Notes under the pieces: model-generated
The model's input: only the letters and a program-made list of their open reading frames with translations
The model's database searches: none
Told to the model about the DNA's origin: nothing
Translations under genes and position numbers: made by a program
Shown: in pieces, positions 5,196 to 57,335 of the stretch
Layout: each line of letters begins with the position of its first letter
Numbering within the stretch: the first letter of the stretch is position 1
Source of the DNA: an uncultured Bacteroides sp.
GTDB taxonomy: Bacteria; Bacteroidota; Bacteroidia; Bacteroidales; UBA11471
Direction: 5' to 3'
Assembly: GCA_963931635.1 (NCBI GenBank)
Contig: OZ007034.1
Span: 921,285 to 985,284 of the forward strand
Length of the DNA: 64,000 nt

Positions 5196-5198
5196 CGG

Positions 5199-5272
5199 CT
5201 CTTCAGGTAGGACTTGAACCTACGACCCTCTGATTAACAGTCAGATGCTCTAACCGACTGAGCTACTGAAGA
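5199..5272 (-). tRNA. tRNA-Asn (anticodon GTT)
   Basis: The reverse complement folds as a 74-nt cloverleaf. Acceptor TCTTCAG/CTGAAGA, D-stem GCTC/GAGC, anticodon stem TCTGA/TCAGA with loop CTGTTAA, T-stem GTAGG/CCTAC with loop TTCAAGT. CCA is not encoded. Confidence 0.93.
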
Positions 5273-5316
5273 ATAAATGATGTATGTTTCGATTCCGCAC
5301 CCGGAATTTTTTGTGG

Positions 5317-5390
5317 CTCTTCAGGTAGGACTTGAACCTACGACCCTCTGATTAACAGTCAGATGCTCTAACCGACTGAGCTACTGAAGA
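5317..5390 (-). tRNA. tRNA-Asn (anticodon GTT), second identical copy
   Basis: The 74-nt sequence is identical to the copy at 5199-5272 and is separated from it by a 44-nt spacer. Confidence 0.93.
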
Positions 5391-38038: not shown

Positions 38039-39016
38039 TTACAGGCCCAGTTTAGCCGATATGTCGAGCATGCGCTGTATGGGTCGTATAGCCTTCTCGG
38101 CAACGTTCTTGTCTACAATAATTTCGGGAGTCTCGTCGCGCAGACAGTTTCTCAGTTTTTCGAGCGTGTTCAGGCGCATGTAGTTGCACTCGTTGCAAGC
38201 ACAGGTGCTGTCTTCGGGAGGAGCGGGAATGAACTCCTTGTCGGGACACTGTTTCTGCATCTCATGCAGTATACCCGACTCGGTAGCCACTATAAAGCGT
38301 TTCTTATCCGATTTCACGGCATGTTTCAGCAGCGCTGCCGTAGAGCCTACCTTGTCGGCCAGTTTCAACAGTACAGCCTTACATTCGGGGTGAGCCAGCA
38401 CATCGGCATCGGGGTACTGCTTTTTCAACTCCATGATTTTGGCTACCGAAAACTGTTCGTGTACATGGCAGGCACCGTTCCAAAGCAACATATTACGGCC
38501 GGTAATGCTGTTGATGTAGTTGCCCAGGTTGCGGTCGGGACCGAAAATGATTTTTTCATCCTTGGGGAAACTTTCCACAATCTGCCGGGCATTGGTAGAA
38601 GTTACCACCACTTCGGTATAGGCCTTCACGGCTGCCGACGTATTGACATAAGAGATGACCGTGTATCCGGGGTGTGCTTCTACAAAACGGGCAAACTCAT
38701 CGGCCGGACAACTGTCGGCCAACGAACAACCGGCCTCCATGTCGGGCACCAGCACCTTCTTGTCGGGACACAATATCTTGGCAGTCTCGCCCATGAAGTG
38801 CACACCGCACATCACAATCACATCGGCATCGGTCTTGGCCGCCCATTGTGCCAGAGCCAGGCTATCGCCTACATAGTCGGCCACATCTTGCAATTCGCCA
38901 CGCTGGTAGTAGTGGGCCAGTATCACGGCGTTTTTCTTCCGACGCAGTAGATTGATCTCTTCGATTAACGCATCATTATTCTGGGTAGACTTAGACGAAG
39001 AACAAACATTCATCAT
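38039..39016 (-). CDS. nadA: quinolinate synthase
   Basis: ...KNAVILAHYYQ...DYVGDSL...MCGVHFMGETAKIL...VSYVNTSAAVKA...ACHVHE...ESGILH... conserved NadA blocks. Confidence 0.93.
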   Translation of the reverse strand: MMNVCSSSKSTQNNDALIEEINLLRRKKNAVILAHYYQRGELQDVADYVGDSLALAQWAAKTDADVIVMCGVHFMGETAKILCPDKKVLVPDMEAGCSLADSCPADEFARFVEAHPGYTVISYVNTSAAVKAYTEVVVTSTNARQIVESFPKDEKIIFGPDRNLGNYINSITGRNMLLWNGACHVHEQFSVAKIMELKKQYPDADVLAHPECKAVLLKLADKVGSTAALLKHAVKSDKKRFIVATESGILHEMQKQCPDKEFIPAPPEDSTCACNECNYMRLNTLEKLRNCLRDETPEIIVDKNVAEKAIRPIQRMLDISAKLGL

Positions 39017-39454
39017 ATTATTATTTTATTTTTTCTTTAAAGACTTTCTATGCTGATGATATTATCCTGTTGATAATACTCAAAACTTTTTCCTTTTTTA
39101 TTTGCTTTTTCGGTTATGAAAAGAAAATTTCTACTTATGAGTAGATTATTAACCTTTCTTTTTGCTTATAATAAGCAACTTGCAGATGTATTCAACATCT
39201 GTTTACAACGGGCAAAGTTAGAAATTTTCTTTTATAAGAATACTTGATAAACGTTTATTTGTCTTTTGGTATCTCTCCCAAAAAAAGTTGTTTTATTATT
39301 TGGAGTTTCTCTTTGGCTGCCGGTATAAAATAGTTTGGAAAAGTGTGTGTTTTTTTCTATTCTTTTTTTGAAGTTTTTTTTTCACAGCTTTTCAACACTT
39401 ATCGACAACTTATCATCACGGTTTGTATTTGTGATGGCTGGGAGTTTTTATAAG

Positions 39455-39533
39455 AAAGGATGCGGCTCGGCATAGTCAATGGATGAAAACTTCGTTTTCT
39501 CTTTGCCTCTGCTCTCGCCTTTCACTATCTTTG
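39455..39533 (+). repeat. solo (about 0.9 unit) copy of the 85-bp hairpin repeat family
   Basis: ggatgcggctcggcatagtcaatggatgaaaacttcgttttctctttgcctctgctctcgcctttcactatctttg is near-identical to units at 56900-57335 and, inverted, at 48285-48520. Confidence 0.85.
39526..39533 (+). promoter_or_regulatory. -7 box TATCTTTG (inside the repeat) upstream of the SpoU/TrmH gene
   Basis: TTTG-N20-TATCTTTG is formed by the repeat tail and head, 30 nt before ATG 39563. Confidence 0.55.
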
Positions 39534-39562
39534 TAAAGGATTATTGTAAGTGAAGCGTAAAG

Positions 39563-40093
39563 ATGAAGAAGAAAACCGTTCTCGATATGCAACGCATATC
39601 GGTAGATGAGTTTAAGGCAGCCGATAAGATACCTCTTGTCATAGTTCTCGATAACGTGCGCAGTCTCAACAATGTAGGGTCGGTGTTCCGCACGAGCGAT
39701 GCGTTCAGGGCATCGGCCATCTATCTCTGTGGTATCACCTCTACGCCCCCTCACCCCGAGATTCACAAGACGGCTCTGGGGGCCGAAGATAGTGTGGAAT
39801 GGCACTATGCAGCCGATACTGTTGCTCTGATTGATGAACTGCATGTTCGTGGATATTTTGTCTATGCTATCGAGCAGGTAGAGGGGAGTGTGTCGCTGGC
39901 CGATATTGAACTATTTCCCGAAAAAAAATATGCCGTGGTGCTGGGTAATGAAGTGAACGGCGTGCAACAGCAGGTTGTTGATAAGTGCGATGCCTGCCTG
40001 GAAATACCTCAGTATGGAACGAAACATTCACTCAATGTTTCGGTAACGGCCGGGCTGGTGATATGGGATTTTTTCAAACAACTTTTCAGGTAA
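39563..40093 (+). CDS. TrmH/SpoU family RNA 2'-O-methyltransferase
   Basis: PLVIVLDNVRSLNNVGSVFRTSDAF...VLGNEVNGV...IPQYGTKHSLNVSVTAGLVIW SPOUT motifs. Confidence 0.85.
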   Translation: MKKKTVLDMQRISVDEFKAADKIPLVIVLDNVRSLNNVGSVFRTSDAFRASAIYLCGITSTPPHPEIHKTALGAEDSVEWHYAADTVALIDELHVRGYFVYAIEQVEGSVSLADIELFPEKKYAVVLGNEVNGVQQQVVDKCDACLEIPQYGTKHSLNVSVTAGLVIWDFFKQLFR

Positions 40094-40276
40094 TCTGTTT
40101 ACAAATATAGTGCTGATTATCAGTTAAAAAGAATATAAAAATTTTTCGAGACGCAGACACCCTCTTTGAAGAAAGAGAACGTCTGCGTCTGTTTCATAAA
40201 AAGGATTATAAAAAAGAGATGCGGCTGTTGATAACCGTGTAGAGAGAGGGAAAAGCAGGGCGGAGGAGGGGAAGCG

Positions 40277-40873
40277 TCAGAGTTGGCCGTTCTCTACCAA
40301 TACCACAATCTCTTCGAGCATGCGGTCTTTGCCTTCGGGTTCCCACTCCTTGCGGAGGCTCACGCCGAACATGGCACCGAATGTTTGCCAAAAAGAGGCT
40401 CTGAAACCACCCAGGAAGGCTTTTATAAGCTGGTAGGACGACTGATTGCATTCCCGGTCGATGAGACGTATCAGCAGCTTGGCCTGGTTGTAGGTAAAAT
40501 CTTTCAGCACCGGCTTGTATTCCTCGAAGAGTTCCTTCTCCATGCGTTTAAGGTGTTTTTCGCGTTCCTCTTCGGGGAGGGTCTGAATATATTCATAGGT
40601 TTCTATCAGGGCATTGTGTACCAGTTTGGCATAGGGTAACACCTTCTTCACGTCGCGCACATTGCGCCAATAGTACTCTTTCTCCTTCTGGCTTTTGAAG
40701 GTTCTTTTCGGAAAACAATAAATCGGGCGAAGTATGATGAGCGTAGCTGTGTCGCCGGCATCGGTTACGAAGCGGGTAATGCGCTGATAGTATCGTGACT
40801 GTTGGGCTTGGGCACATTCGCAGCCCAGGCCAATCAGCGACAGAAGCATAATGATACAGGCCTTCTTCATCAC
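40277..40873 (-). CDS. DUF4294 domain-containing secreted protein
   Basis: Signal peptide. ...VLPYAKL...LIRLIDRECNQSSYQLIKAFLGGFRASFWQTFGAMFGVSLRKEWEP matches my recollection of DUF4294. Confidence 0.7.
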   Translation of the reverse strand: MMKKACIIMLLSLIGLGCECAQAQQSRYYQRITRFVTDAGDTATLIILRPIYCFPKRTFKSQKEKEYYWRNVRDVKKVLPYAKLVHNALIETYEYIQTLPEEEREKHLKRMEKELFEEYKPVLKDFTYNQAKLLIRLIDRECNQSSYQLIKAFLGGFRASFWQTFGAMFGVSLRKEWEPEGKDRMLEEIVVLVENGQL

Positions 40874-41338
40874 CGCAAAAGTAGTGTATTGCAGCCGAAT
40901 AAGCGCTTAAAAAGTTTTATTTTCTCTCTTCCTTATGTTGATAACTCCTAAATAAAATGTTTATATCTATACAATATATTATTATAAATAATTGTATATC
41001 AATAAAATAATATTAAATATGATATTTATGAACAGCATTTTATAAAATAGACGTCATGCCGGTGGACAGAACAATTCTGCCTGCGGTGCTTTTGCCTGCG
41101 GCCGGTGGGGGACAAAGAATCGTTTATTTTCTCTTTCCTGCGGTTGATAACCTATCAGTAAGATGTTGATATTTATAAAACATGATTTTGTAAATATCTG
41201 TATATCAATATATAAATATTGAATATGGCGATTATCAACAACTTTTGATAAGAAAAACATTCCATTTTTGATTTTCGCTATTTCTTACCGCGGGTCGACA
41301 AATGATAGGCGATGCAACAAAGGTTGCCTTTTTAGTGT

Positions 41339-41346
41339 TACCTTTG
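41339..41346 (+). promoter_or_regulatory. -7 box TACCTTTG upstream of the radical SAM gene
   Basis: TAnnTTTG match 23 nt before ATG 41369. Confidence 0.5.
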
Positions 41347-41368
41347 TAGCGAAAAATATAAAAAAGCA

Positions 41369-42148
41369 ATGTCTACACTTCTGTTTCGCGAAATCGTTTT
41401 CGGACCGGTACACAGCCGGCGGTTGGGAATATCGTTGGGAATGAATCTTCTTCCTGTCGACGGGAAGGTATGTTCTTTCGACTGCATCTATTGCGAGTGC
41501 GGTTACAATGGCGAGCGTCATGCCCACAGCGGATTGCCTTCGCGCGAGGAGGTGAGCGAGTGTCTGAAAAACCGTCTCATTGCCATGCACGGCCGAGGCG
41601 AGAAACTCGATGTTATCACCTTTGCCGGGAACGGCGAGCCGACACTGCACCCCGACTTTGCCGCCATCATCGACGATACGCTGCGCCTGCGCGACACCTA
41701 TTATCCTGAGGCCAAGGTGAGTGTGCTTTCCAATGCCACGCGCATCGACCGTGCCGATGTGTTTGCGGCTCTGAACAGGGTAGACAACAACATCTTGAAA
41801 CTCGATTCGTCGCTCGACAAGACGGTGCGTCTCATCAATTCGCCCGCATCGCCCTCCTTCACGGTCGAGAAACTCATAGATGCTCTCTGTCGTTTCAACG
41901 GTAATCTTATTGTGCAGACTCTCTTCCTCCAAGGCCGCCACAACGGCACGACGGTCGACAACACCACCGAAGAGGAGCTTCGCCCCTGGCTCGATGCCGT
42001 GCGTCGCATAGCTCCCAAGGAGGTGATGATATACACCATCGACCGCGAAACCCCCGAAAAGGAGCTGCGCAAGGCCACGCCCGCCACACTCGACGCCATT
42101 GCCCGCCGTGTCGAAGCCCTGGGCATCAAGGCTCAGGTATCCTATTGA
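41369..42148 (+). CDS. radical SAM protein (small, unknown substrate)
   Basis: GPVHSRRLGISLG... and CSFDCIYC (CxxxCxxC) cluster motif. 259 aa. Confidence 0.8.
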   Translation: MSTLLFREIVFGPVHSRRLGISLGMNLLPVDGKVCSFDCIYCECGYNGERHAHSGLPSREEVSECLKNRLIAMHGRGEKLDVITFAGNGEPTLHPDFAAIIDDTLRLRDTYYPEAKVSVLSNATRIDRADVFAALNRVDNNILKLDSSLDKTVRLINSPASPSFTVEKLIDALCRFNGNLIVQTLFLQGRHNGTTVDNTTEEELRPWLDAVRRIAPKEVMIYTIDRETPEKELRKATPATLDAIARRVEALGIKAQVSY

Positions 42149-42284
42149 AAAGCTGGCACCGAAAAAATTCTCCCTTGACTTTTGGGGCTTGTAGTGAGGT
42201 ATGTAGACATAAATTGTCGATTTTTACCGCTTTATGGCCGATAATGTCGGACAAAGAATTATTTTTACGCCGTGAAATAAAGTT

Positions 42285-43109
42285 ATGGGTAAAACACGGT
42301 TCTCTCTCTTTATCCCTCTTCTTTTGGTGGCCGCATTCATACAGGTGATTTTCGGTAACCCCGACCTCTCTGTCTTTGCTTTTCCGGTAAATGCGGCTAT
42401 TGTTCTGTTGTTGTTTGGCGGGCTCTATGTGTTCAACAGAGAGTACGCTGCGAACCGTTTTTTAGTGGCCCTTGCGTCGGGTCGCACCGCTGTGTCGGCT
42501 ATTGTACTGACCGGTATGGCGGGGCTGGTGATGCTCTTTTTCCCCTCTCTCGCATTTCAGAAGTCCTGGATTTTCGACGCCGTGCTGTTGCTCCTCGTCT
42601 CCAATCTTTTCCTGGCCCTGCTGCGGTACAGGGGACGGCACAGGTGGCGCTTTTACCTCAACCATGCCGGTTTGCTCATACTGGTAGTGGGGCTGGCTTT
42701 CGGGGCGGCCGACATGCGTGTGATGCGGGCATCCGTGAAGGTGGGCGAGAGCATCGACAAGGCCTATACCCGCGAAGGGGTTGCCCGTCCGCTCGGATAT
42801 ACATTGACACTGAAACATTTCGAAATAGAATATTACGATGCCGCCCGGCAGATACCGGCCGATTTCCGGGCCGAGGTTGTTGCCGACGGTGAGAGTCGCA
42901 CCATCAGGGTGAATGCCCCTTGGCATAAATCCTGGAAAGAAGATATTTATCTGGCTGCCTATGACACGGCTGCGGGTGGCGGGAGCGAGTATGGTGTGCT
43001 GGAATTTGTCGTGCAGCCGTGGAAAAACGTCGCCCTTGCCGGTCTGCTGCTGTTTGTGGCAGGTTCGCTGCTGATGGTGTGGGGCGGTAAAAAGAAAAAC
43101 TTGTCATGA
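42285..43109 (+). CDS. short ResB/CcsB-like cytochrome c biogenesis protein (System II)
   Basis: TM helices with YLNHAGLLILVVG (conserved His). C-terminal ...TIRVNAPWHKSWKEDIYLAAY resembles the ResB 'vN.P....g..iYq' block. Only 274 aa, so shorter than typical ResB. Confidence 0.6.
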   Translation: MGKTRFSLFIPLLLVAAFIQVIFGNPDLSVFAFPVNAAIVLLLFGGLYVFNREYAANRFLVALASGRTAVSAIVLTGMAGLVMLFFPSLAFQKSWIFDAVLLLLVSNLFLALLRYRGRHRWRFYLNHAGLLILVVGLAFGAADMRVMRASVKVGESIDKAYTREGVARPLGYTLTLKHFEIEYYDAARQIPADFRAEVVADGESRTIRVNAPWHKSWKEDIYLAAYDTAAGGGSEYGVLEFVVQPWKNVALAGLLLFVAGSLLMVWGGKKKNLS

Positions 43110-43882
43110 ACTGGGAACATTTTCCATACATCGCCGCCCTCTCGGTGCTCTTGTCGCTTGCGGGAGCCGTATGTGCCCTGCGCAACCCCCGGCGGTCGCC
43201 GACGGCCCTGCTCCTGTCGCTGGCCGGTGTGGGAGTGCTGGCCTTTTTCATCGGCGGGTTCTGGCTCTCGCTCGGACGGCCTCCCATGCGCACCATGGGC
43301 GAGACACGCCTCTGGTATTCGCTCTTTGTAATGATGGCGGGGCTCTTCGTCTACCGGCGGTGGAATTACCGGTGGCTGTTGTTGTTCACCACCGTACTGT
43401 CGGGCGTGTTCTGCATCATCAACGTGGTGAAGCCCGAGATACACGATGCCACGCTCGCACCAGCATTGCAGAGTGTCTACTTCATACCGCATGTGGCCGT
43501 CTACATGTTTGCCTACGGTCTGCTGGCCTGTGCCTTTCTGCTGGCTGTGGCCGGTCTTGTGCAGGGCAGGTATGGCTATTTGGAGTCGATAGACAATCTG
43601 GTGTACATTGCCACCGGGCTGCTCTTTCTCGGCATGCTCTCGGGCGCCTTGTGGGCCAAGGAGGCCTGGGGCGATTTCTGGGGCTGGGATCCCAAGGAGA
43701 CGTGGGCTGCCGTTACGGCAGCCGGGTATCTGACCTACATACACCTGCGCCTCACCCGGGTATCGGAGAGCCGCTGGCTCTATGTCGTGGTGGTGGTGAG
43801 CTTTCTCCTGCTGCAAATGTGCTGGTATGGGTATAAATACTTACCTTCGTCGGGCGAAAGCCTGCATCTCTATAATATGTAA
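43106..43882 (+). CDS. ccsA: cytochrome c biogenesis protein CcsA (haem handling, WWD motif)
   Basis: WAKEAWGDFWGWDPKETWA (Trp-rich WWD motif) and flanking His residues. ATGA overlap with the ResB-like gene. Confidence 0.8.
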   Translation: MNWEHFPYIAALSVLLSLAGAVCALRNPRRSPTALLLSLAGVGVLAFFIGGFWLSLGRPPMRTMGETRLWYSLFVMMAGLFVYRRWNYRWLLLFTTVLSGVFCIINVVKPEIHDATLAPALQSVYFIPHVAVYMFAYGLLACAFLLAVAGLVQGRYGYLESIDNLVYIATGLLFLGMLSGALWAKEAWGDFWGWDPKETWAAVTAAGYLTYIHLRLTRVSESRWLYVVVVVSFLLLQMCWYGYKYLPSSGESLHLYNM

Positions 43883-43927
43883 GAGACTAAATTTCAGTAT
43901 AAACCAAAAACCTAAACGTACAGAAAA

Positions 43928-45322
43928 ATGAAAACAAGTTCGAAAACCATTCTTGTTGCGATAGGAATCGTCGCAATAGGAGCGATTGTTTACCGGGCTG
44001 TCAACACGGCACCTCCCGAGTCGATGCCGGCCGATGAACGAATCGTGAAAATCTTTGAAGATGGCGGTTGTGCCGAGTGCCACACGGCCGACCCCGCGCT
44101 TCCCTTCTTCTCCAACTGGCCCATTGCCCGGAAGGTTATCACCGAGGATATCGTCAACGGATACAAGTCATTTGATATTGTTCCTATGATGACGGCCATC
44201 GAAAACGGTGAGGCTGTGAACGAAGTAGACCTGGCCAAAGTAGAAAAATCGGTCATGGACGGTACGATGCCGTTGGCCAAATATTATTTGGTGCACTGGG
44301 GTTCGTCGCTCACCCGCAAGAAATCGGACATGGTGTTGGCTTGGGTACGTAACCATCGTGCTCAGTTCTATCCCAACACGCTGGCCGCTGCCGAGTTTGC
44401 CAACGAGACCATCAGACCGATACCCGACTCAGTAGAGTACGACCCCGCCAAGGCTGCTCTCGGTGAGCTTCTCTACCACGACACCCGTCTATCGGCCGAC
44501 GGTACCGTTTCCTGTGCCACCTGCCACGGTATCAATACCGGCGGTGTCGACAACCTGAAATATTCCGAAGGCATCGGCGGACAACTGGGTGGTGTGAATG
44601 CTCCCACAGTGTTCAATGCCGTGTTCAACTTCGTACAGTTCTGGGACGGACGGGCCGCCACGCTGGCCGACCAGGCTGCCGGACCTCCCTTGAATCCCGT
44701 AGAGATGGGTTGCACCTCGTTCGACGAAATCGTAGCCCGTCTAGCCGAAGACAAGGCTTTCGTAAAGGCCTTCAATGCCGTCTATCCCGAAGGGTTGAGC
44801 CAGGCCACCATTACCGATGCCATTGCCCAATATGAGCATACCCTCATTACTCCCAACTCGCCTTTCGACCGTTACCTCAAAGGCGACAAGGAGGCTCTCA
44901 CCGCCGAGCAAGTCAAGGGCTTTGAACTCTTCAAGGAGTACAACTGCGCCACCTGCCACGCCGGTGTGAACATGGGCGGATTGAGCTATGAACTGATGGG
45001 TCAGCGGGCCGACTACTTCAAAGACCGCGAGCTTCAAGAGCGCTCGGGCCTGACCGATGGCGACAACGGTCGTTGGGCTCAGACCGGTATCGAACGCGAC
45101 CGTTTCCGCTTCCGCACCCCCGGCTTGCGCAACGTGGCTCTCACCTATCCCTATTACCACGACGGTAGTGTGAAATCCCTCGAAGAGGCTGTGGGCATGA
45201 TGGCCAAATATCAGGTAGGTAAGGAATTGTCGGCCGAAAACATTGCCACAATTACCGCTTTCCTGCACACCCTTACAGGTGAGTACAAGGGACAAACCCT
45301 CGTTAATGACAACATGAAATAA
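43928..45322 (+). CDS. membrane-anchored tri-haem cytochrome c peroxidase (YhjA-like quinol peroxidase)
   Basis: N-terminal TM anchor (ILVAIGIVAIGAIVY). Three CxxCH motifs: CAECH, CATCH, CATCH. Di-haem CCP/MauG core (...FWDGRA...PMG-like and ...FRTPGLRNV...PYYHDGS). Confidence 0.8.
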   Translation: MKTSSKTILVAIGIVAIGAIVYRAVNTAPPESMPADERIVKIFEDGGCAECHTADPALPFFSNWPIARKVITEDIVNGYKSFDIVPMMTAIENGEAVNEVDLAKVEKSVMDGTMPLAKYYLVHWGSSLTRKKSDMVLAWVRNHRAQFYPNTLAAAEFANETIRPIPDSVEYDPAKAALGELLYHDTRLSADGTVSCATCHGINTGGVDNLKYSEGIGGQLGGVNAPTVFNAVFNFVQFWDGRAATLADQAAGPPLNPVEMGCTSFDEIVARLAEDKAFVKAFNAVYPEGLSQATITDAIAQYEHTLITPNSPFDRYLKGDKEALTAEQVKGFELFKEYNCATCHAGVNMGGLSYELMGQRADYFKDRELQERSGLTDGDNGRWAQTGIERDRFRFRTPGLRNVALTYPYYHDGSVKSLEEAVGMMAKYQVGKELSAENIATITAFLHTLTGEYKGQTLVNDNMK

Positions 45323-45363
45323 GACTTTCTTCGCCACGTTCTTTGTTGAGCGGCGAGCCATAC

Positions 45364-45404
45364 AGACATTTCGAGACGTGTGCGTCTCGAAATGTCTTTT
45401 TTTT
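45364..45404 (+). terminator. strong rho-independent terminator after the peroxidase gene
   Basis: agacatttcgagacg (45364-78) pairs with cgtctcgaaatgtct (45383-97), followed by ttttttt. Confidence 0.9.
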
Positions 45405-45764
45405 ACCCCTTTTTTGCGGAGTATTTTTTGGCAAAATCAAATTGCAGGAGATAATGTAGTGATTATCTACACCTATAAATGATTTCTTAAAAATTTGTTG
45501 CAAAAAAATCATTATTATAAAATAATCCCGTATATTTGTTGCGTAATCCAAAACAAAATACCGCTTTCGAGCCTTATCACACACATATTATCCTTACTCA
45601 ATCGTTGACATCTCCGGGTGTTGCCAATGCCTGCACGACTGCTTTCAGCCGCGCGGTTTTCTTTTTTATGCGCATTTAGTCGCTCTGTTTTTTCATACAG
45701 TGTAGGGTGAGACAAGAAAATAACGTATTCAAAAAATCAAATCAGTTTTTCGTAAAAAAATATT

Positions 45765-46808
45765 ATGGGATTAATGCTCTTATACCTATTCGTGGCATTA
45801 GGTGTATCATTTACTTGTTCGGTACTCGAAGCCGTGCTGCTCTCGACGCCGATGTCGTTTATCACGATGAAGGAGCAGGAGGGAGGCGGAGCGTCGGCCC
45901 GACTGCTGAAAAAATACAAACAGAACATCGACAAGCCCATCTCGGCCATACTTTCGCTCAACACCATCGCCCATACCATTGGTGCGGCCGGTGTGGGAGC
46001 CGAGGCGGTGAAGATTTTCGGTGAGGCCTATTTCGGTATCATCTCGGCCATACTCACCATACTCATTCTCGTGCTTTCCGAGATTATACCCAAGACCATT
46101 GGCGCCTCGTACTGGCGCAGGCTGGCCCTCTTCTCGGCACAGGTGATACGGGTGTTTGTCTACATCTGCTATCCGCTCGTGCTGCTTTCGGAGTTGATAA
46201 CCCGCGTATTCTCTCCCAAGGAGAAAGAGGTGTCGGTAAGCCGTGAAGAGGTATCGGCCATGCTCACGGTGGGCGAAGAAGAGGGAGTCTTCGAGTCGAA
46301 AGAAAACAAGGTGATACAGAACCTTATCCGACTCAACAACGTAAAGGTAAAAGAGGTGATGACCCCTCGCGTGGTGACGGCCGTGGCCTCGGAAGAGATG
46401 ACCCTGCGCGACTTCTACAACGAGAAGTCCTACCGTTTCTATTCGCGCATACCCGTCTATGGCGACAGCAAAGACTACATCACCGGCTATGTGCTGCGGC
46501 GCACGGTGCTCGAAAACCTCACCGAAGACAAGTTCGACATGAAGCTCAAAGACATACGCCGGCCCATACCCTATTTCTCCGAAAACAAGTCGGTATCGAC
46601 CGTGTGGGAAAAACTTCTCGAACACAAGGAGCAGATAGCCCTCATCGTCGACGAGTACGGCTGCTTCCGCGGCATCATCACCATGGAAGATGTGGTAGAG
46701 ACCATCTTCGGCCTCGAAATCATCGACGAGACCGATACCGTCGTCGATATGCAGCAGCTGGCCCGCGATCGCTGGAACGCCCGCCTGCAACGCTACAAGG
46801 AGATGTAG
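45765..46808 (+). CDS. CNNM/CorC-type transporter-associated protein (DUF21 membrane domain plus CBS pair)
   Basis: The N-terminal DUF21 helices contain ...LSLNTIAHTIGAAGVG.... Then a CBS pair (VKEVMTPRV...; ...IALIVDEYGCFRGIITMEDVVETIFG). Confidence 0.8.
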   Translation: MGLMLLYLFVALGVSFTCSVLEAVLLSTPMSFITMKEQEGGGASARLLKKYKQNIDKPISAILSLNTIAHTIGAAGVGAEAVKIFGEAYFGIISAILTILILVLSEIIPKTIGASYWRRLALFSAQVIRVFVYICYPLVLLSELITRVFSPKEKEVSVSREEVSAMLTVGEEEGVFESKENKVIQNLIRLNNVKVKEVMTPRVVTAVASEEMTLRDFYNEKSYRFYSRIPVYGDSKDYITGYVLRRTVLENLTEDKFDMKLKDIRRPIPYFSENKSVSTVWEKLLEHKEQIALIVDEYGCFRGIITMEDVVETIFGLEIIDETDTVVDMQQLARDRWNARLQRYKEM

Positions 46809-46833
46809 TGTCGTCGTCGGTGTGACAAACAGG

Positions 46834-46875
46834 AGAGAGGCTCTGCCACGGCGGCAGAGCCTCTCTTTCATTTTA
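46834..46875. terminator. hairpin terminator between convergent genes
   Basis: agagaggctctgcc (46834-47) pairs with ggcagagcctctct (46853-66), followed by ttcatttt. Confidence 0.75.
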
Positions 46876-46880
46876 TTTTA

Positions 46881-47300
46881 TTAGTCGGAAATCTCGATAG
46901 CGGGATTGCGGCGCGATAGTTCCCTTACGAAAGCGTCGAGCTCTTTGGGCGAGACGAAGAGCGGCCGTTTCGCCCCTCTCAGCCTCAGCACGACACCGCG
47001 GCGGGAGAGGGCATAGGCCGCCGCAAACGGGCAGCGCCGCACGGTGACGGACACGCCGGTGATAGCCGTTACCGGCACACGGCAGGTGGCCAGATAGCCC
47101 GAGCGCACGACAAGCGTGCCGTCGTCGAGAAAACGGTATTCGGTGCCGGTGATGCGGGCAATGAGAAATACCGCCCCCAGCATGCACACCACCCATGCCA
47201 CCACATACCCCACCCACAGGCAGTAGAGCATGGCAGCCGTCGCCACCGCCAGCAGCGAATAAAATGCCGTACCGTCGATTCCCGATTTAAATGTGCGCAT
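46881..47300 (-). CDS. bacterial PH-domain (bPH) membrane protein
   Basis: Two N-terminal TM helices are followed by ...TEYRFLDDGTLVVRSGYL...PVTAITGVSV...VVLRL..., as in YdbS/YdbT-type PH domains. High-GC codon usage like the host. Confidence 0.6.
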   Translation of the reverse strand: MRTFKSGIDGTAFYSLLAVATAAMLYCLWVGYVVAWVVCMLGAVFLIARITGTEYRFLDDGTLVVRSGYLATCRVPVTAITGVSVTVRRCPFAAAYALSRRGVVLRLRGAKRPLFVSPKELDAFVRELSRRNPAIEISD

Positions 47301-47366
47301 GGGCAGAATACTTTTGTTAAACTAATTCAATTTCTCAGATAACGCGGTTTCCTTGAAAATGTTGTT

Positions 47367-48278
47367 TTACTCCCGATATAACATACCGGCATTGCGGGTT
47401 ATGTTGGCTACCACGTCGCGCAGCCACGAAGGTGACTCCACCTCTATCTCATCGCCGTAGGAGAGTATTTCCTTGACAAAGTCGAAAGAGGGTCGCAGTT
47501 GGTATTCAAAAATCTTGAAATCCATCTCTTTGTCGGTCTCTATCTCTTTCTGGCTGTGATGCAGGGGCAACGAACGTATATATTTGTATTGGTTGCCATA
47601 AACGATGAGGCGTACCGTCTCTATCTTTTTGTCCGTATCCACGATGATGCCGAAACAGGAAGAGAAAAATTCCTGGGCATCGAAGTCGTCCGGCAAAGAA
47701 AAAGTCTGTTCGGTTATATGGATAGAAGAAATGCGATCCAGCGAAAAAACCAATAAATCGTTTTGCCGGCAGCTGCGTGCCAATACATACCAGCGTTGAC
47801 GGAATATTTTTAGGCAGTATGGTTCTATGTCGAACGTTTTGGTCGATTTTTTCCAGAAACTTTGATACGAAATGGTTACCACTCTATTGCAGCGCATGGC
47901 TTCGATCATGGGAATAAGGTATTTTTCGCCCGAAGGTATGTTCTCCAATAGAATTCTTTTTTTGAGGAGATGATTTTCATTAATGATATTATTTACGGCG
48001 AAAGTATTCAGTAACCATTTTTTTATATCATTTTTTTCGATGTCTTCAACATTTTCGATGTAATAACAGTATCCGTTGCGTCTCTCACATTCGATGTTGA
48101 TATCGAAAATATCTTCGATGGCTTTTCTGTGATTATGGAATGTGCGTATGGGTATGGTCTCTCCCTCGCTCATGCCGGAGAGTAACCATTTTTCATTGAT
48201 TTCTTCGAGCGAAATTTTGCCTGCCCGATAAATGGTATTGATGAGCCAGATGTATCTGGTAAATAGATTTTTTGCCAT
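47367..48278 (-). CDS. WYL domain-containing transcriptional regulator (HTH-WYL-WCX architecture)
   Basis: MAKNLFTRYIWLINTIYRAGKISLEEINEKW (wHTH-like). Central ...IEPYCLKIFRQRWYVLARS...LLVFSLDRI (WYL beta-barrel signature). AT-rich codons. The longer 48485 start reads through repeat DNA and is rejected. Confidence 0.75.
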   Translation of the reverse strand: MAKNLFTRYIWLINTIYRAGKISLEEINEKWLLSGMSEGETIPIRTFHNHRKAIEDIFDINIECERRNGYCYYIENVEDIEKNDIKKWLLNTFAVNNIINENHLLKKRILLENIPSGEKYLIPMIEAMRCNRVVTISYQSFWKKSTKTFDIEPYCLKIFRQRWYVLARSCRQNDLLVFSLDRISSIHITEQTFSLPDDFDAQEFFSSCFGIIVDTDKKIETVRLIVYGNQYKYIRSLPLHHSQKEIETDKEMDFKIFEYQLRPSFDFVKEILSYGDEIEVESPSWLRDVVANITRNAGMLYRE

Positions 48279-48284
48279 AATGTA

Positions 48285-48520
48285 CAAATATAGTGAAAGG
48301 CGAGAGCAGAGGCAAGGGAGAAAACGGAGTTTTCGTCGATGACTATGCCGAGCCGCCTCCTGTATTCTGAAAATATAGCGAAAGGCGAGAGCAGAGACAA
48401 GGGAGAAAACAAAGTTTTCGCCAAAGACTATGCCGAGCCGCCTCCTGTATTCTGAAAATATAGTGAAAGGCGAGAGCAGAGACAAAGAGGAAAAGATAAT
48501 TTTATATCGAGCCGCTTAGG
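48285..48520 (-). repeat. tandem array (about 2.8 units) of the 85-bp hairpin repeat family, inverted orientation
   Basis: Unit heads (tctcgcctttcac on the minus strand) fall at 48305, 48390 and 48475, an exact 85-bp period. A degenerate partial unit extends to ~48520. Confidence 0.85.
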
Positions 48521-48528
48521 TTCTGTAA

Positions 48529-48564
48529 TGAAAAAATAAAACAGGCAAGCGCAAGCTTGCCTGT
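48529..48564 (-). terminator. rho-independent terminator ending the 5-gene island operon
   Basis: acaggcaagc (48541-50) pairs with gcttgcctgt (48555-64). On the minus strand it is followed by tttatttttt. It lies 7 nt after the stop of the 77-aa ORF. Confidence 0.8.
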
Positions 48565-48570
48565 TTTATT

Positions 48571-48804
48571 TTAGCTGCGCTTGGTCCATGACCTACCTTC
48601 GGTTGTCGAATAAAACAGTCCTTTGGTCGTTTGGGCTAAAATTTCTTTTCCATTATCGATCAAATCCAGAAAATCTCCGATATTGGAGTTTGGTTGGAAC
48701 CGAACGGTCCATGATCTTCCGTCCGTGAAAGAATATTCGAGTTTCCCTGCTGAAACCGGGGAGATGCGGATAAGTTCTTTTCCGCGTTTAATCATTTTGG
48801 GCAT
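48571..48804 (-). CDS. 77-aa protein with two Asp-box/BNR-like hairpin motifs
   Basis: Internal duplication KLEYSFTDGRSWTVR / GLFYSTTEGRSWTKR (S-x-T-[DE]-G-R-S-W). AT-rich codons. Last gene of the operon. Confidence 0.5.
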   Translation of the reverse strand: MPKMIKRGKELIRISPVSAGKLEYSFTDGRSWTVRFQPNSNIGDFLDLIDNGKEILAQTTKGLFYSTTEGRSWTKRS

Positions 48805-48874
48805 AAGTATTTGTTTTTAGAGTGGTGCCTCATGTTTACGGTCTTTGGCATTACCGGCATATATCCATATGTTA

Positions 48875-49501
48875 TTATTCTGGGGTTGAGTGGTTATTCC
48901 ATTGGCCTATTTTGTAATTGATAATACTGTTTTTACAATCTATTAGACCTTTTATTACTGCATTGAGATTTTCTATGTCAATTGTTTTGCTAATGTTCGG
49001 AATACTGATTTTTTCCCATTTTTTCTTATCTCTGTCATAGTTATACGTTATAGTTAAGTTGGAGGCAGTGTTATAAAACCGGGTACAGGAGTAGGTACAG
49101 GTGTCGTTTTGTATTTGTGTTTCGATTTTTTCGAGAGTGCTTATCAATTCTGTGATTGCATCGAGTGGATAATATATATCATCTGCCCCTATAAGAAATC
49201 CGCATCGTTCGTTTTTATCCATATTTTCGAAGAATTGTATGGATAACCAAGTTTTTTCAAGATGCTCCTTTTCAATATATGTGTATATATTATAATTATA
49301 TTCAGATGTGGTGTATTTATATAAGGGGATTTCTGTGATGCTTAAGGCGAATGTTTCGATAGATTGTTGTGGTATTATATTCCAAAGTTCATATTCTTCG
49401 TTTGGTACATTACCCGAAAATGTGTTGCCGTTGTTTTCACAACTGCTTGTCAGTAGAGCAAAAAATAGTCCGATACCGATAAGAAGAAAAAGTTTTTTCA
49501 T
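48875..49501 (-). CDS. lipoprotein, unknown function (island)
   Basis: Signal/lipobox MKKLFLLIGIGLFFALLTSSC|ENNGN. No recognisable domain. 8-nt gap to the upstream gene. Confidence 0.65.
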   Translation of the reverse strand: MKKLFLLIGIGLFFALLTSSCENNGNTFSGNVPNEEYELWNIIPQQSIETFALSITEIPLYKYTTSEYNYNIYTYIEKEHLEKTWLSIQFFENMDKNERCGFLIGADDIYYPLDAITELISTLEKIETQIQNDTCTYSCTRFYNTASNLTITYNYDRDKKKWEKISIPNISKTIDIENLNAVIKGLIDCKNSIINYKIGQWNNHSTPE

Positions 49502-49509
49502 AAGTGTTG

Positions 49510-50274
49510 TTATTTTTTGAGATTACATAGAATATCTTCAACGATTGTGTCGAAATAGGCATCCATGGTACCTTTTCCTTTATACATGAATCCGCGTGGG
49601 TGAAAAGTGCGATAGGCCCATTTTATGCCGGGAATTTCAACCCTGGCTATTTCTTGGCCATGGGCCGAGGTCAGGGGCGAGAACGTAACGCCTTGAATGC
49701 GCTTGACAATGACAGGGTCGTACGATGGTCCCGTGAGGAATAATACGACATCGGGTTTCAGTATGCGCAGTTCTTCTTCCACGACAGGGAAATATCGCAT
49801 TTCGACCTCCTGTATCTGTTGCGGAGGAATGCCGATTGCATTTTTCTGCCCGGGAATGCGGGCTTTTCCTATTTTCACGATATTGTTCCATACATACTCG
49901 ATGGTGCGTCCCGGGCATTTTTCGCGAAGGCGGGACATGAATTTCTCCATGCCGTGCATGAATATTTTTCGGCTGCCGTCGCCATAATTGAAGTAGCCGT
50001 TGTAAATTTCTTGTATGCGGTCTATTTCTTCGCGGGGGGCGATGTTCTCAGCCGAAAACGTGCCTCCCCAATCGTTGTTCTCACGGCCGAAAACAACGAC
50101 ACGCAAGTCGGCTTTCTCGTAATCGGCTCCGTTGTCTTTTACAAACAGCAGAAGCGGATTGGTGGGTAGGGAGGAGGCCGCTGTGTTTACTGTCACCGAT
50201 TTCATTGCCTTGCAGAAGTCGGGCCATAACCCGGAGTACAGATCCATGAGTTTGTCATCTACATCTTTTTTCAT
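49510..50274 (-). CDS. cytoplasmic hypothetical protein with UDG-superfamily-like motif order
   Basis: LRVVVFGRENNDWGG (aa 57-71), WNNIVKIGK (129-137), KPDVVLFLTGPS (173-184) and TFHPRGF (223-229). These occur in the same order as the family-4 UDG blocks as I recall them. No Fe-S cysteines. Confidence 0.55.
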   Translation of the reverse strand: MKKDVDDKLMDLYSGLWPDFCKAMKSVTVNTAASSLPTNPLLLFVKDNGADYEKADLRVVVFGRENNDWGGTFSAENIAPREEIDRIQEIYNGYFNYGDGSRKIFMHGMEKFMSRLREKCPGRTIEYVWNNIVKIGKARIPGQKNAIGIPPQQIQEVEMRYFPVVEEELRILKPDVVLFLTGPSYDPVIVKRIQGVTFSPLTSAHGQEIARVEIPGIKWAYRTFHPRGFMYKGKGTMDAYFDTIVEDILCNLKK

Positions 50275-50278
50275 AAGA

Positions 50279-50938
50279 TTATTCTTTTAGCAAGTTGTAT
50301 AGTTGGGTTAAGTAAAAGTAATCGATACCAAAAGAAAGTATAGCAACAAACAAGTTATAGAAAGAGAAACCGTCTTCTAATCCTATGCCAAAGAAAAGTA
50401 TTGGTATTTGTAACAGTATGGCTATACCTAATAGACCGGTAATTTCGGCGTTGTTCTTTATTAGTTTGATACCGAGTATGGTATAAATAACAAGGTCTGA
50501 AATGATTACTGCAAAAGAAAATATCATGGCAGTTTTGTCGAATGAACCTTCTATTTCCATAAAGATTAGAGATAGGAATAGAATATTTAATGAGATAGCT
50601 GCTTCCAATAGTTTGGTCAATGGTTTTTGTAGAGGTTTCATTCCCAGTGTCAGAGCACATAAGAATAATATATTTATTACATAATAAATACAATCGTATG
50701 TTGTTTCGGGAAGAAGATTTATTGTATCGTATAATATTTTATATTTCCCAAAATGAGGTTTATATCCAATTGTAAAAAAAGCTTGGCAAGCCGCTACGAT
50801 TAATCCCGCATAATATAAGAAAGGGATAAACGGGGATAAGGCATTAGGTAACGTCTTAAAGGTTTTCCCGCAATAACGACATTGTGTGCTGGGTTTTGGT
50901 ATGTCTTCATTACAAAAAGGACATTTTTTATATTCCAT
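50279..50938 (-). CDS. zinc-ribbon-headed polytopic membrane protein (island)
   Basis: N-terminal CPFC-x10-CRYC, then about 6 hydrophobic helices. 4-nt gap to the downstream UDG-like gene. Confidence 0.65.
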   Translation of the reverse strand: MEYKKCPFCNEDIPKPSTQCRYCGKTFKTLPNALSPFIPFLYYAGLIVAACQAFFTIGYKPHFGKYKILYDTINLLPETTYDCIYYVINILFLCALTLGMKPLQKPLTKLLEAAISLNILFLSLIFMEIEGSFDKTAMIFSFAVIISDLVIYTILGIKLIKNNAEITGLLGIAILLQIPILFFGIGLEDGFSFYNLFVAILSFGIDYFYLTQLYNLLKE

Positions 50939-50964
50939 GGCATTAGATTTTATGTGAGAATTAA

Positions 50965-51588
50965 TTAATTATTTACTCGTTTGAAAGAAAAGAAGCCGTC
51001 GCTGGCAATAAAAGAGAGTGTATCCCCTTCGATGGTTAAATTTTTGTATGACCCTTCATTTATGTTATCTTGTTCGTACTGTTCGTAAAATTCTTTAAAA
51101 GCATTTTTTTGTAATTCTTTTGTTATTTCCCCTTCGAAGGGAGTTGTAAATATTTCTATCAAAGCATTGCCAAAATCCATGATTTCATCTGTGAGAAACG
51201 GACTCTCGGCCACGCTCATATCTACATCATCTATTGTAACCTTTAAAGTATTTAGGTCGTATAGTAATACCAAGTCTCCAAACAAAACTTCGTACCTCCC
51301 CCCGATGAGGCTATTCACAGTATAGTTTATCAGTATGTTATCTTCTTCGATAGTTTCTTCCATAGAGTAGCTTCTATATTCGCTGAATATTCCTCCATCG
51401 GTTTTATTACTTTCTTTATATTTAAAGCGGTAAAATAATGTTTGTGTGTAAGGGGTTCCATCTTCTGTAACGAAATCTAAATACCCAATCCATTTTCCTT
51501 CGAGGTCCCGAGCCAATTTGTTGTCTTGACAACCGGTTAAAAATACAGCTCCTAAAATAAGTGCAACAGAGATTCCTTTTAGTTTCAT
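50965..51588 (-). CDS. lipoprotein, unknown function (first gene of the island operon)
   Basis: Signal/lipobox MKLKGISVALILGAVFLTGC|QDNK. Beta-rich, lipocalin-like feel. No recognisable domain. Confidence 0.65.
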   Translation of the reverse strand: MKLKGISVALILGAVFLTGCQDNKLARDLEGKWIGYLDFVTEDGTPYTQTLFYRFKYKESNKTDGGIFSEYRSYSMEETIEEDNILINYTVNSLIGGRYEVLFGDLVLLYDLNTLKVTIDDVDMSVAESPFLTDEIMDFGNALIEIFTTPFEGEITKELQKNAFKEFYEQYEQDNINEGSYKNLTIEGDTLSFIASDGFFSFKRVNN

Positions 51589-52066
51589 AATTTCCTTTTT
51601 TGAGTTGATAGTGTTTTTGATTTTATTTGCTGCTGTTATAAAAGAAAAGGGACGCAGCCATCGCTTTTTCTCTTACTCGGTAAGGCTCTGGTAAGCCAGA
51701 AGTTCTAAGACGAAAAAAGCAGTCTGCGCCCCATGGGGGGTACAAACTTGACTTTGACGCTTATTGTAGAACTTCTTAAATTTACCAGATTTAACCGAGT
51801 TCAATAATTGTCAGGCAAGTTGTGCAATATGTTACAAAGATTATAAGATGTCTATTTTTACCTCCTTTTTTAGTTTTCGGAGGTAAAGAAAATAAATTTT
51901 TCTTTAAAACACAAACTCAACGTAAAATATCGCCGACTGCTTTGTACAGGCAAAGGTCTTTGCGTGATGTGCCAAATCGTTGCATAGCTTGAAAAAAGTT
52001 GTGCATAAATAGAGCGGGAGATGGGTAAAATGGGGGTGCACGGGAATATACTTTGATGGAAATTTG

Positions 52067-56807: not shown

Positions 56808-56899
56808 GTTGCGTTGGATTTTTAGTGAGACAAAAAAGTGTATGGTAGGAACGCCGCAGGAGGGGAGAAGGTTCAATGTCGCTGTGTCGGCCTTTTCAT

Positions 56900-57335
56900 T
56901 CTCGCCTTTCACTGTTTTCATAGAAGACAGGAGTCGGCTCGGCATAGCCAATGGATGAAAACTTCGTTTTCTCTTTGCCTTTGCTCTCGCCTTTCACTGT
57001 CTTTTCAGAAGACAGGAGTCGGCTCGGCATAGTCAATGAACGAAAACTTCGTTTTCTCTTTGCCTCTGCTCTCACCTTTCGCTATCTTTTCAGAAGATAG
57101 GTTGCGGCTCGGCACAGTCAACGATGAAAACTTCGTTTTCTCACCCGCCTCTGCTCTCGCTTTTCACTGTCTTTTCAGAAGATAGGAGTCGGCTCGGCAC
57201 AGTCAACGAGTGAAAACTTCGTTTTCTCACCCGCCTCTGCTCTCGCTTTTCACTGTCTTTTCAGAAGACAGGATGCGGCTCGGTAAAAATCTCAAACGAG
57301 TTTGGTCTTTTTACTCTCGCCTTTCACTATCTTTG
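56900..57335 (+). repeat. tandem array (about 5.2 units) of the 85-bp hairpin repeat family
   Basis: Unit heads tctcgcctttcac fall at 56900, 56985, 57070, 57155, 57241 and 57315. Each unit carries ctgtctt-ttcag-aagacag and gaaaac-ttc-gttttc hairpins and the core cggctcggcatagtc. Confidence 0.9.
57328..57335 (+). promoter_or_regulatory. -7 box TATCTTTG in the last repeat unit, upstream of the MFS gene
   Basis: Only the gene-proximal unit has TATCTTTG. Internal units read TGTCTTTT or TATCTTTT. It lies 52 nt before ATG 57387. Confidence 0.55.

Follow-up and report, generated by a model that had tools for sequence, protein, structure and literature searches.

A WYL-linked gene cluster around a divergent uracil DNA glycosylase-like protein in an uncultured Bacteroides sp.: a candidate base-excision defence module

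DNA glycosylases have been recognised as antiviral effectors only recently (2024-2026), namely Brig1, Brig2, Brig3 and the Dag families. We know of no antiviral glycosylase characterised from gut Bacteroidales. Brig1, Brig2 and Brig3 are glycosylases with a uracil DNA glycosylase (UDG) fold that provide phage defence (PMC11078745; 10.1101/2025.10.29.685425; 10.64898/2026.02.25.707755). The best structural match of Brig1 is the family-4 UDG of Sulfolobus tokodaii, PDB 4ZBY (PMC11078745). Brig2 defends against phages with modified thymidines, and its homologues, some of them in Bacteroidota, prefer A/T-rich, laterally acquired contexts near defence or mobile genes (10.1101/2025.10.29.685425). 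Here, we describe a cluster of six genes in a 64,000-nt stretch of DNA from an uncultured Bacteroides sp. (contig OZ007034.1, positions 921,285 to 985,284; the window in the following) that encodes a UDG-like protein, termed UDGL, and a WYL-domain regulator. Its functional core is UDGL, the WYL factor, which has a winged helix-turn-helix (wHTH)-WYL-WCX architecture, and the small protein mini77, while the six-gene unit is a genus-specific elaboration. The conserved unit consists of UDGL and WYL, with mini77 as a frequent third member. Our tentative reading, which we place somewhat short of an even chance, is that the cluster is a WYL-coupled base-excision defence module working like the Brig glycosylases.

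The cluster consists of six intact open reading frames (ORFs) on the minus strand (47367-51588). The intergenic gaps of the five-gene operon, from lipoA to mini77, are 26, 4, 8, and 70 nt. The six ORFs and their gaps are exactly as claimed in an earlier note on this DNA, and the hairpin/U-run terminator reported there was found as a perfect inverted repeat with T runs. The features are:

50965-51588, minus strand: lipoA, first gene of the operon, predicted lipoprotein of 207 aa with a signal peptide ending in LTGC
50279-50938, minus strand: ZnTM, 219 aa, N-terminal zinc ribbon (CPFC...CRYC) followed by ∼5 hydrophobic segments
49510-50274, minus strand: UDGL, 254 aa, divergent UDG-superfamily protein, the conserved hub of the cluster
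48875-49501, minus strand: lipoB, predicted lipoprotein of 208 aa, lineage-specific
48571-48804, minus strand: mini77, 77 aa, two Asp-box-like halves
48533-48572, no strand assigned: hairpin terminator closing the five-gene operon, perfect 18-nt inverted repeat (48533-48550/48555-48572) with a 4-nt loop and flanking A/T runs
47367-48275, minus strand: WYL regulator, 302 aa, counted from the ATG at 48275

By its fold, UDGL is a divergent member of the UDG superfamily and a predicted glycosylase. Its AlphaFold2 (AF2) model has a pLDDT of 80 and a pTM of 0.84. In a Foldseek comparison of this model with the PDB, the top 50 matches were all UDG-superfamily structures or a UDG-like domain, including UdgX (5e-6), the family-4 enzyme 4zby, SMUG1, and TDG. 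Among viral models (BFVD), the named matches at E<=0.03 were UDGs or phage DNA polymerases. UDGL itself matched the Pfam family PF03167 with E=0.005 (17.4 bits, below the curated cutoff of 24.3), and 31 of 60 members of the UDGL family matched it at E<=0.01 (best 2.9e-7), with no other family matched. The fold and these weak profile matches bear out the UDG-like nature of the 254-aa protein, for which a UDG-like motif order had been pointed out. Invariant or nearly invariant in 60 sequences are G63, E65, W69, N130, N131, K134, G136, E168, G182, D186, R222, H225, and P226. The conserved motifs are FGQE.N.W (FGQ/R-E65-x-N-x-W), WNNI.KIGK, and RT.HP (R222-T-x-H225-P226); the acidic residue of FGQE and the His-Pro of RT.HP follow the order of UDG motifs A and B, an equivalence taken from motif order and from the ranges of the HMM alignment. 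The family is large: an exhaustive HMMER profile search retrieved 1498 representatives (clusters at 50% identity) at E<=1e-3 and 853 at E<=1e-10. This overturned a picture of UDGL as an orphan, for which a word-index search had returned 4 clusters. In some of the relatives, the UDGL part is joined to an ABC-type ATPase (AAA_21/AAA_15) or an FtsK-gamma DNA-binding domain.

The second member of the conserved unit is a regulator of the DriD/PafBC/CapW/BrxR type. Pfam identified WYL (3.3e-15) and WCX (5.8e-7), both above cutoff, but no HTH family, and the PADLOC WYL model was matched at 3e-28. In the AF2 model (pLDDT 79), a winged HTH of three helices and a beta hairpin (residues 2-73) precedes the WYL (131-191) and WCX (219-301) domains. 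A profile of the family found PafBC (5.5e-12), DriD (4e-10), and CapW (3e-3) among PDB chains. All 32 significant Foldseek matches of the model were WYL-domain regulators or WYL-WCX domains, with DriD at 8e-14, BrxR at 2e-8, and CapW at 5e-8, and with PafBC and WYL1 also present. The full-length alignments to DriD, BrxR, and CapW span the N-terminal winged HTH, and the solved relatives include structures of DriD and CapW bound to single-stranded DNA (ssDNA). Pfam, AF2, and Foldseek thus agree that the protein called a WYL-domain regulator in the earlier note is a genuine one. Its family comprises more than 3900 clusters, is centred on Bacteroidales, and elsewhere borders variable stretches that carry LRR proteins, a PLD/zeta-toxin/AAA set, or RNase T.

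The link between the two proteins emerged from a co-occurrence scan with one genome per GTDB species, which gave 80 UDGL loci, mostly from Bacteroidota (individual loci are given as L numbers). Close homologues of the window WYL protein (220-370 bits) were found at most 1.5 kb from UDGL in 22 of these 80 species-level loci. Thirteen of the adjacent WYL genes are located directly downstream and eight, of the Prevotella and Segatella copri types, upstream in the same orientation; one is divergent. In 9 of the 13 downstream cases, UDGL and WYL overlap by 4 bp (ATGA), as checked in L050, whose UDGL relative has no PADLOC match. Four further loci carry a WYL homologue 2-6 kb from UDGL. The adjacency spans UDGL subfamilies that are just 27-57% identical to the window protein. 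Roughly 1 Mb of flanks contained approximately four WYL homologues at distances above 3 kb from UDGL; because distal homologues are so few, about one adjacency would be expected by chance by a rough estimate, compared to the 22 observed. WYL and UDGL are an evolutionarily conserved pair, and the WYL gene is not merely the separate following unit that it had been taken for.

The third member, mini77, contains an internal 123-nt repeat and two boxes of the form S/T-x-D/E-G-R-S/T-W. A weak match to a BNR-type glycosylhydrolase (E 5e-4) was the only one that any operon protein gave in NCBIfam. A metagenome scan with mini77 returned 46 loci, 41 of them outside the clade of the window. A UDG-like gene accompanies mini77 in 14 of these 41 loci: six have UDGL directly upstream and eight have a member of a second family, c4. 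Proteins of the c4 family (195-238 aa) aligned to UDGL in hhalign with a probability of 80% (E 1.3e-5) and with the motifs in register, and one member matches PF03167. A candidate for a third UDG-like family (233-237 aa, located after mini77 homologues) looked similar by eye and was rejected at a hhalign probability of 2%. WYL genes are present in 9 of the 41 loci, usually followed by an RNase T-type exonuclease; c4 also occurs directly upstream of WYL and then RNase T. Among the 80 UDGL loci, a mini77 homologue is located directly downstream of UDGL in L046. Membrane proteins also recur near mini77, namely an Ion_trans channel (E 1.5e-29) and a protein of 497 aa, as do a small zinc ribbon and a dynamin-like GTPase. 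In three loci (L144, L150, L154) a short Ion_trans protein resembling voltage-gated channels sits between mini77 and c4 or WYL; its stretch TLFQVMSLESWAS looks pore-like. The mini77 and UDGL loci together mean that four of the six gene types of the window (UDG-like, mini77, WYL, and some membrane protein) recur in shuffled form in other genera.

The remaining neighbours of UDGL elsewhere represent the vocabulary of conflict and nucleic-acid repair systems. Nine of the 80 loci encode a HAD_SAK_2 phosphatase, and in seven of these its gene immediately follows UDGL. RtcB is encoded on the same strand as UDGL in 4-5 of the 80 (L043, L045, L053, L054), and 13 loci contain TPR/Sel1/LRR proteins. KAP NTPases near UDGL match the PADLOC models PifA, PDC-S20, and QatA, and a DEDDh exonuclease matches PDC-S48; integrases, a PIF1 helicase, GmrSD, a metallophosphoesterase, and a beta-CASP nuclease occur as well. 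One example, a metagenome-assembled genome (MAG) of Porphyromonadaceae (L045, 1403-15658), contains the string RtcB-UDGL-WYL-RNase T-FtsZ-like, which faces a divergent string running from a SLOG/DprA-like gene to a beta-CASP nuclease and a metallophosphoesterase, with two GmrSD genes next to it. The window contains none of these RtcB, HAD, GmrSD, or KAP-type neighbours. According to PADLOC, the WYL gene is the only defence-associated neighbour there.

As for the locus itself, the genes of the cluster are foreign in composition and form a mosaic, which is fixed beside nadB in the species and its sister species. Its G+C content (47367-51588) is 39%, compared to 55.3% in the remainder of the window. 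Six low-GC patches occur in the window, three of which jointly cover the cluster; the other patches below 40% (38701-39700, 40601-41500, 45201-45900) are mostly intergenic or surround the SpoU and DUF4294 genes. The AT-rich island of the earlier note was thus recovered, but its AT-rich codon usage holds for part of the six genes: lipoA (G+C 0.35), ZnTM, and lipoB (0.33) fall between 0.32 and 0.35, with G+C at third codon positions (GC3) of 0.29-0.34 against 0.65-0.76 in flanking genes, whereas UDGL reaches 0.48 with a GC3 of 0.56, and the WYL and mini77 genes have 0.41 and 0.44. All six ORFs are real genes, since comparison with sister-lineage orthologues gave ratios of nonsynonymous to synonymous divergence (dN/dS) of 0.04-0.5, indicative of purifying selection (lipoA 0.27-0.44; lipoB 0.16-0.26). 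The 528-bp spacer between nadB and lipoA holds a further feature:

51675-51800, minus strand: long imperfect palindrome, possibly a 5' leader or operator

Its predicted RNA fold has -62.6 kcal/mol (z = -5.9). It is present in a single copy in the window and conserved in the same-genus loci, with a 10-nt deletion in one arm in L001 and L110. Covariation was not detected among the same-genus loci, which are uninformative in this respect, and the palindrome has no Rfam match; an Rfam scan of the window gave two tRNAs and nothing else. We also searched for an operator motif common to the regions upstream of WYL and of the operon and found none. On the other side of the cluster, a strong GC-rich hairpin of 15-16 bp (46832-46868) separates the bPH and CNNM genes, which converge on it, and is scored as a terminator on both strands.

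Over a stretch of 21.6 kb, the window and the gut metagenome contig L107 are identical (100%), and among GTDB species representatives an uncultured Bacteroidales MAG (L019), with a UDGL identity of 96%, comes nearest. The genes lipoA-ZnTM-UDGL-lipoB adjoin nadB in 22 of 22 same-species contigs with an identical nadB, and synteny is kept in the sister lineages L014, L016, and L099. Therefore, the cluster is not a strain-variable island. Nor is it a mobile island, in line with the earlier note, which saw no intact mobile element between the PH-domain gene and nadB. The closest tRNAs, at 5.2-5.4 kb, are 42 kb away, and the called genes within ∼10 kb included no integrase-like product, the window not having been scanned systematically for integrases and transposases. 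The tRNA region, with two tandem tRNA-Asn genes, adjoins a tandem duplication (2844-4760 and 5197-5390; spacing ∼978 bp, identity 72-87%). Synonymous divergence (dS) between the window and the sister species locus L099 is 0.05-0.15 for the operon genes, compared to 0.44 for nadB, 0.42 for bPH, and 1.05 for WYL. The low values of the operon relative to its flanks suggest a recent exchange or sweep of the operon; the WYL allele, to judge by the same comparison, seems to be divergent, either replaced or fast-evolving.

The region downstream of the operon is more variable. The earlier note had seen no flanking direct repeats and overlooked an 85-bp tandem repeat array with inverted copies:

48286-48505, minus strand: array of 2.4 tandem copies of an 85-bp repeat, separating the terminator from the WYL gene; one inversion endpoint
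39420-39541, plus strand: 85-bp repeat in inverted orientation, upstream of the gene for the SpoU methylase; second inversion endpoint
56892-57333, plus strand: inverted copies of the 85-bp repeat upstream of the major facilitator superfamily (MFS) transporter gene

These arrays directly precede three unrelated genes (SpoU methylase, WYL, and MFS transporter), and the terminal copy of each ends in a box resembling the Bacteroidetes -7 element (TAnnTTTG) just 5' of the gene. On the WYL side, the box is TATATTTG (48285-48292), 9 nt ahead of the WYL ATG. The SpoU and WYL arrays recombine to invert, not to excise, 8.8 kb: the SpoU-to-WYL segment is inverted in the natural strains L001, L109, and L110, and the junction in L109 joins window position 39445 to 48283 within the repeats. 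As a consequence, the WYL gene is displaced by ∼9 kb in some same-species strains. Between the operon and SpoU, one same-species strain (L004, 10175-15579; L111, 580-5984) harbours an extra cassette for five proteins: a WYL protein of 308 aa other than that of the window, a UPF0227/alpha-beta hydrolase, and three more of 483, 240, and 266 aa, of which the 266-aa protein gives a weak match to DNA_topoisoIV. The cassette may represent a further WYL-led system of this hot spot. In the sister species locus L099 (5052-6596), codon 13 of mini77 (window ∼48765) is the insertion site of a gene for a cytoplasmic LRR protein of 514 aa; this gene takes over the first ∼10 residues of mini77, and ∼150 bp are duplicated. 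L019 departs from the window at the same position, and because both events coincide there, ∼48765 looks like a recombination hot spot. We also considered mini77 as a remnant of the LRR gene and rejected this, since ∼10 residues are common to both and L099 keeps an intact mini77.

The enzymatic activity and substrate of UDGL, the ligand and target promoters of WYL, the roles of membrane protein and lipoproteins, and the defence phenotype that we infer would fit together as follows. The WYL protein would bind its own and/or the operon promoter region, and single-stranded nucleic acid arising from invasion or damage would bind the WYL domain and change the activity of the protein. UDGL would flip out and excise a non-canonical or damaged DNA base, with modified bases in the DNA of invading phages or mobile elements as the most plausible targets. 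The resulting abasic sites would block replication, as with Brig1 and Brig3, while a membrane partner might tether UDGL or act as a second effector. We favour defence because of the UDG fold and motifs, the WYL coupling, the recurrence of mini77 and other partners, the conflict-type neighbours, the fusions to ATPases and FtsK-gamma, and the precedent of the Brig proteins, as well as the strain-variable site downstream of the operon and the low operon dS in L099.

Several results weigh against this interpretation. No operon protein matches a PADLOC 2.0 model; in the search of PADLOC-DB 2.0 the WYL protein alone was matched, and the five operon proteins fit no named system, as had been stated before. 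The similarity of UDGL to solved UDGs is modest (TM-score 0.38-0.45 in Foldseek), and UDGL profiles run against PDB sequences gave chance-level matches and no solved glycosylase. The likeness to Brig1, Brig2, and Brig3 is one of fold and context. Relatives of UDGL were absent from PHROGs, phage GenBank records, and IMG/VR, and a plasmid search yielded five weak matches, none of them close. Furthermore, the four-gene core is present in all 22 same-species contigs, unlike a strain-variable defence island. In the window, two genes, the terminator, and the repeat array separate WYL from UDGL, and in some strains WYL lies ∼9 kb away after the inversion; control of this operon by this WYL protein can therefore only be presumed. 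Finally, RtcB, HAD_SAK_2 phosphatase, metallophosphoesterase, and RNase T as neighbours fit repair at least as well as attack.

This last point leads to the main rival, in which the bases excised by UDGL are damaged or misincorporated ones in the DNA (or RNA) of the cell itself and WYL switches the genes on when ssDNA signals damage. We regard such a damage-repair module as rather unlikely, and equally so its corollary, a stress-inducible base-excision/end-healing pathway instead of an anti-phage weapon. DriD and PafBC are damage-response activators, and they are the nearest solved relatives of the WYL protein in both sequence and fold. The same-strand clusters of UDGL with RtcB, HAD_SAK_2, RNase T, metallophosphoesterase, and beta-CASP nuclease bring together end-processing and sealing enzymes, and fixation of the cluster in the species would suit a repair function. 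But the family is sporadic across Bacteroidota, its accessory genes are heavily shuffled, and some of its loci adjoin PifA-like KAP NTPases, GmrSD, or integrases. Fusions to ABC/OLD-type ATPases and the AT-rich foreign composition also speak against repair, and the repair partners are not found in this window.

The next alternative concerns the three envelope proteins. It is unlikely, in our opinion, that there is no single system at all, with UDGL, mini77, and WYL forming one module and lipoA, ZnTM, and lipoB being unrelated envelope genes brought together by an accident of gene order. Neither lipoA nor lipoB has a family match in Pfam, NCBIfam, or PADLOC. ZnTM shows sub-threshold matches to zinc-ribbon families of Pfam, five transmembrane (TM) segments by hydropathy, and, as the sole match among the operon proteins, one to PADLOC LmuB at E 0.069. 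No homologues of ZnTM were detected outside the genus and none of lipoB in any locus examined there, and L019 lacks window positions 50376-50965, i.e. most of ZnTM, but keeps lipoA, UDGL, and lipoB. With WYL inverted away in some strains, the six genes therefore do not travel as one unit. Accident of gene order would also account for the contrast in G+C between UDGL (0.48) and these neighbours (0.32-0.35). On the other hand, gaps of 4-26 nt and a common terminator argue for co-transcription, and homologues of lipoA recur in the UDGL operons of two Barnesiella loci, L056 and L058 (69 bits in phmmer, 287 bits in jackhmmer).

Membrane proteins unrelated to each other (Zn-ribbon+TM, polytopic TM, Ion_trans, and the 497-aa TM protein) likewise recur beside UDG-like or mini77 genes. 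At least nine loci (L009, L027, L048, L056, L057, L058, L065, L089, L092) encode, beside UDGL, a protein that combines an N-terminal zinc ribbon with a single TM helix, and in several of them a polytopic membrane protein and a lipoprotein come next. Seven loci (L021, L022, L025, L028, L032, L049, L055) from environmental and gut Bacteroidota have small soluble proteins there, with two or three tandem zinc-ribbon units, for example YxC.YCG...SSLT..C.RHP.G..KGKH. The Zn-ribbon+TM proteins are not homologous to ZnTM, a point in favour of an accidental arrangement. Hence, the expectation that UDGL co-occurs with its partners elsewhere holds for WYL (22/80), mini77, and lipoA (two loci), but for the Zn-ribbon membrane protein by analogy alone. 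In our main reading, ZnTM and lipoA are looser accessories of the core module, and lipoB is probably a lineage-specific passenger.

The weakest alternative, an orphan immunity or lipoprotein cluster against interbacterial toxins, is very improbable: it could draw on the AT-rich Bacteroidales patch with its membrane protein and pair of small lipoproteins, but nothing positive was found for it, no recombinase, toxin fragment, or type VI secretion gene occurs among the called genes within ∼10 kb, and the partners conserved from genome to genome are nucleic-acid proteins of the cytoplasm (UDG-like, WYL, RNase T) rather than immunity families.

The reading as a WYL-coupled base-excision defence module can be extended. 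It is possible, but doubtful, that UDGL, c4, mini77, the Bacteroidales WYL protein, the RNase T-type exonuclease, and interchangeable membrane proteins belong to an undescribed modular conflict system of gut Bacteroidales. A WYL ssDNA sensor might then control a base-excision enzyme together with a membrane effector (Zn-ribbon+TM, NaV-like Ion_trans, or the 497-aa TM protein), the window being a chromosomally fixed version; this we hold with the same reserve. The large UDGL family, its catalytic-like motifs, and its link to a regulator of the ssDNA-sensor type make it a testable candidate for the handling of modified or damaged DNA in gut bacteria, with partner genes (mini77, Zn-ribbon/membrane proteins) that have no precedent in known glycosylase systems. 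If UDGL were instead a repair enzyme, the cluster would represent a WYL-controlled damage response in a phylum in which such regulation is poorly known. The literature that we searched on WYL with uracil DNA glycosylase or with RtcB, and on WYL-domain proteins in the phage defence of Bacteroides, did not describe a pairing of a UDG-like protein with WYL.

How does the locus compare to known systems? RtcB-centred RNA repair operons, reportedly described by Burroughs and Aravind in 2016, are said to include 'Swiss Army Knife' HAD proteins (Pfam PF18143). Several UDGL loci resemble them, since genes for RtcB, HAD_SAK_2, metallophosphoesterase, and RNase T run there in the same direction as UDGL and WYL. 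But the window has no RtcB or end-healing genes, RtcB occurs in 4-5 of the 80 UDGL loci, and we found no description of a UDG-like component of RtcB RNA-repair systems in the literature searched. The WYL protein shares the wHTH-WYL-WCX architecture and a position beside the presumed target with the regulators of BREX (BrxR) and CBASS (CapW) and with DriD, PafBC, and WYL1. It differs from DriD, PafBC, BrxR, and CapW in having 13-16% identity to the full-length chains. Unlike the known WYL regulators, its family adjoins many variable genes (UDG-like, LRR, AAA ATPase, PLD, RNase T) and is often translationally coupled downstream of an enzyme gene rather than located upstream or divergent.

With housekeeping UDGs (Ung, MUG/TDG, SMUG1, families 4 and 5, and UdgX), UDGL has in common the fold, an acidic G-Q/E-x motif near the first strand, and a C-terminal His-Pro. 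It is set apart by profile scores below the Pfam gathering threshold, the invariant WNNI.KIGK, ∼40 additional helical residues at the N-terminus, a sporadic distribution, and a conflict-type genomic context. The Brig glycosylases come closest: in both cases the UDG fold is hard to detect by sequence, and 4zby is among the Foldseek matches of UDGL too. The location near defence and mobile genes, a trait of Brig2 homologues, is seen in several related UDGL loci with KAP/PifA-like proteins, GmrSD, integrases, and a PDC-S48-like exonuclease; in the window, the WYL gene is the one defence-associated neighbour. But Brig1 demonstrably acts by itself, and the tests of Brig2 used a single gene, whereas UDGL is tied to WYL and recurs with mini77, Zn-ribbon/membrane proteins, and RNase T.

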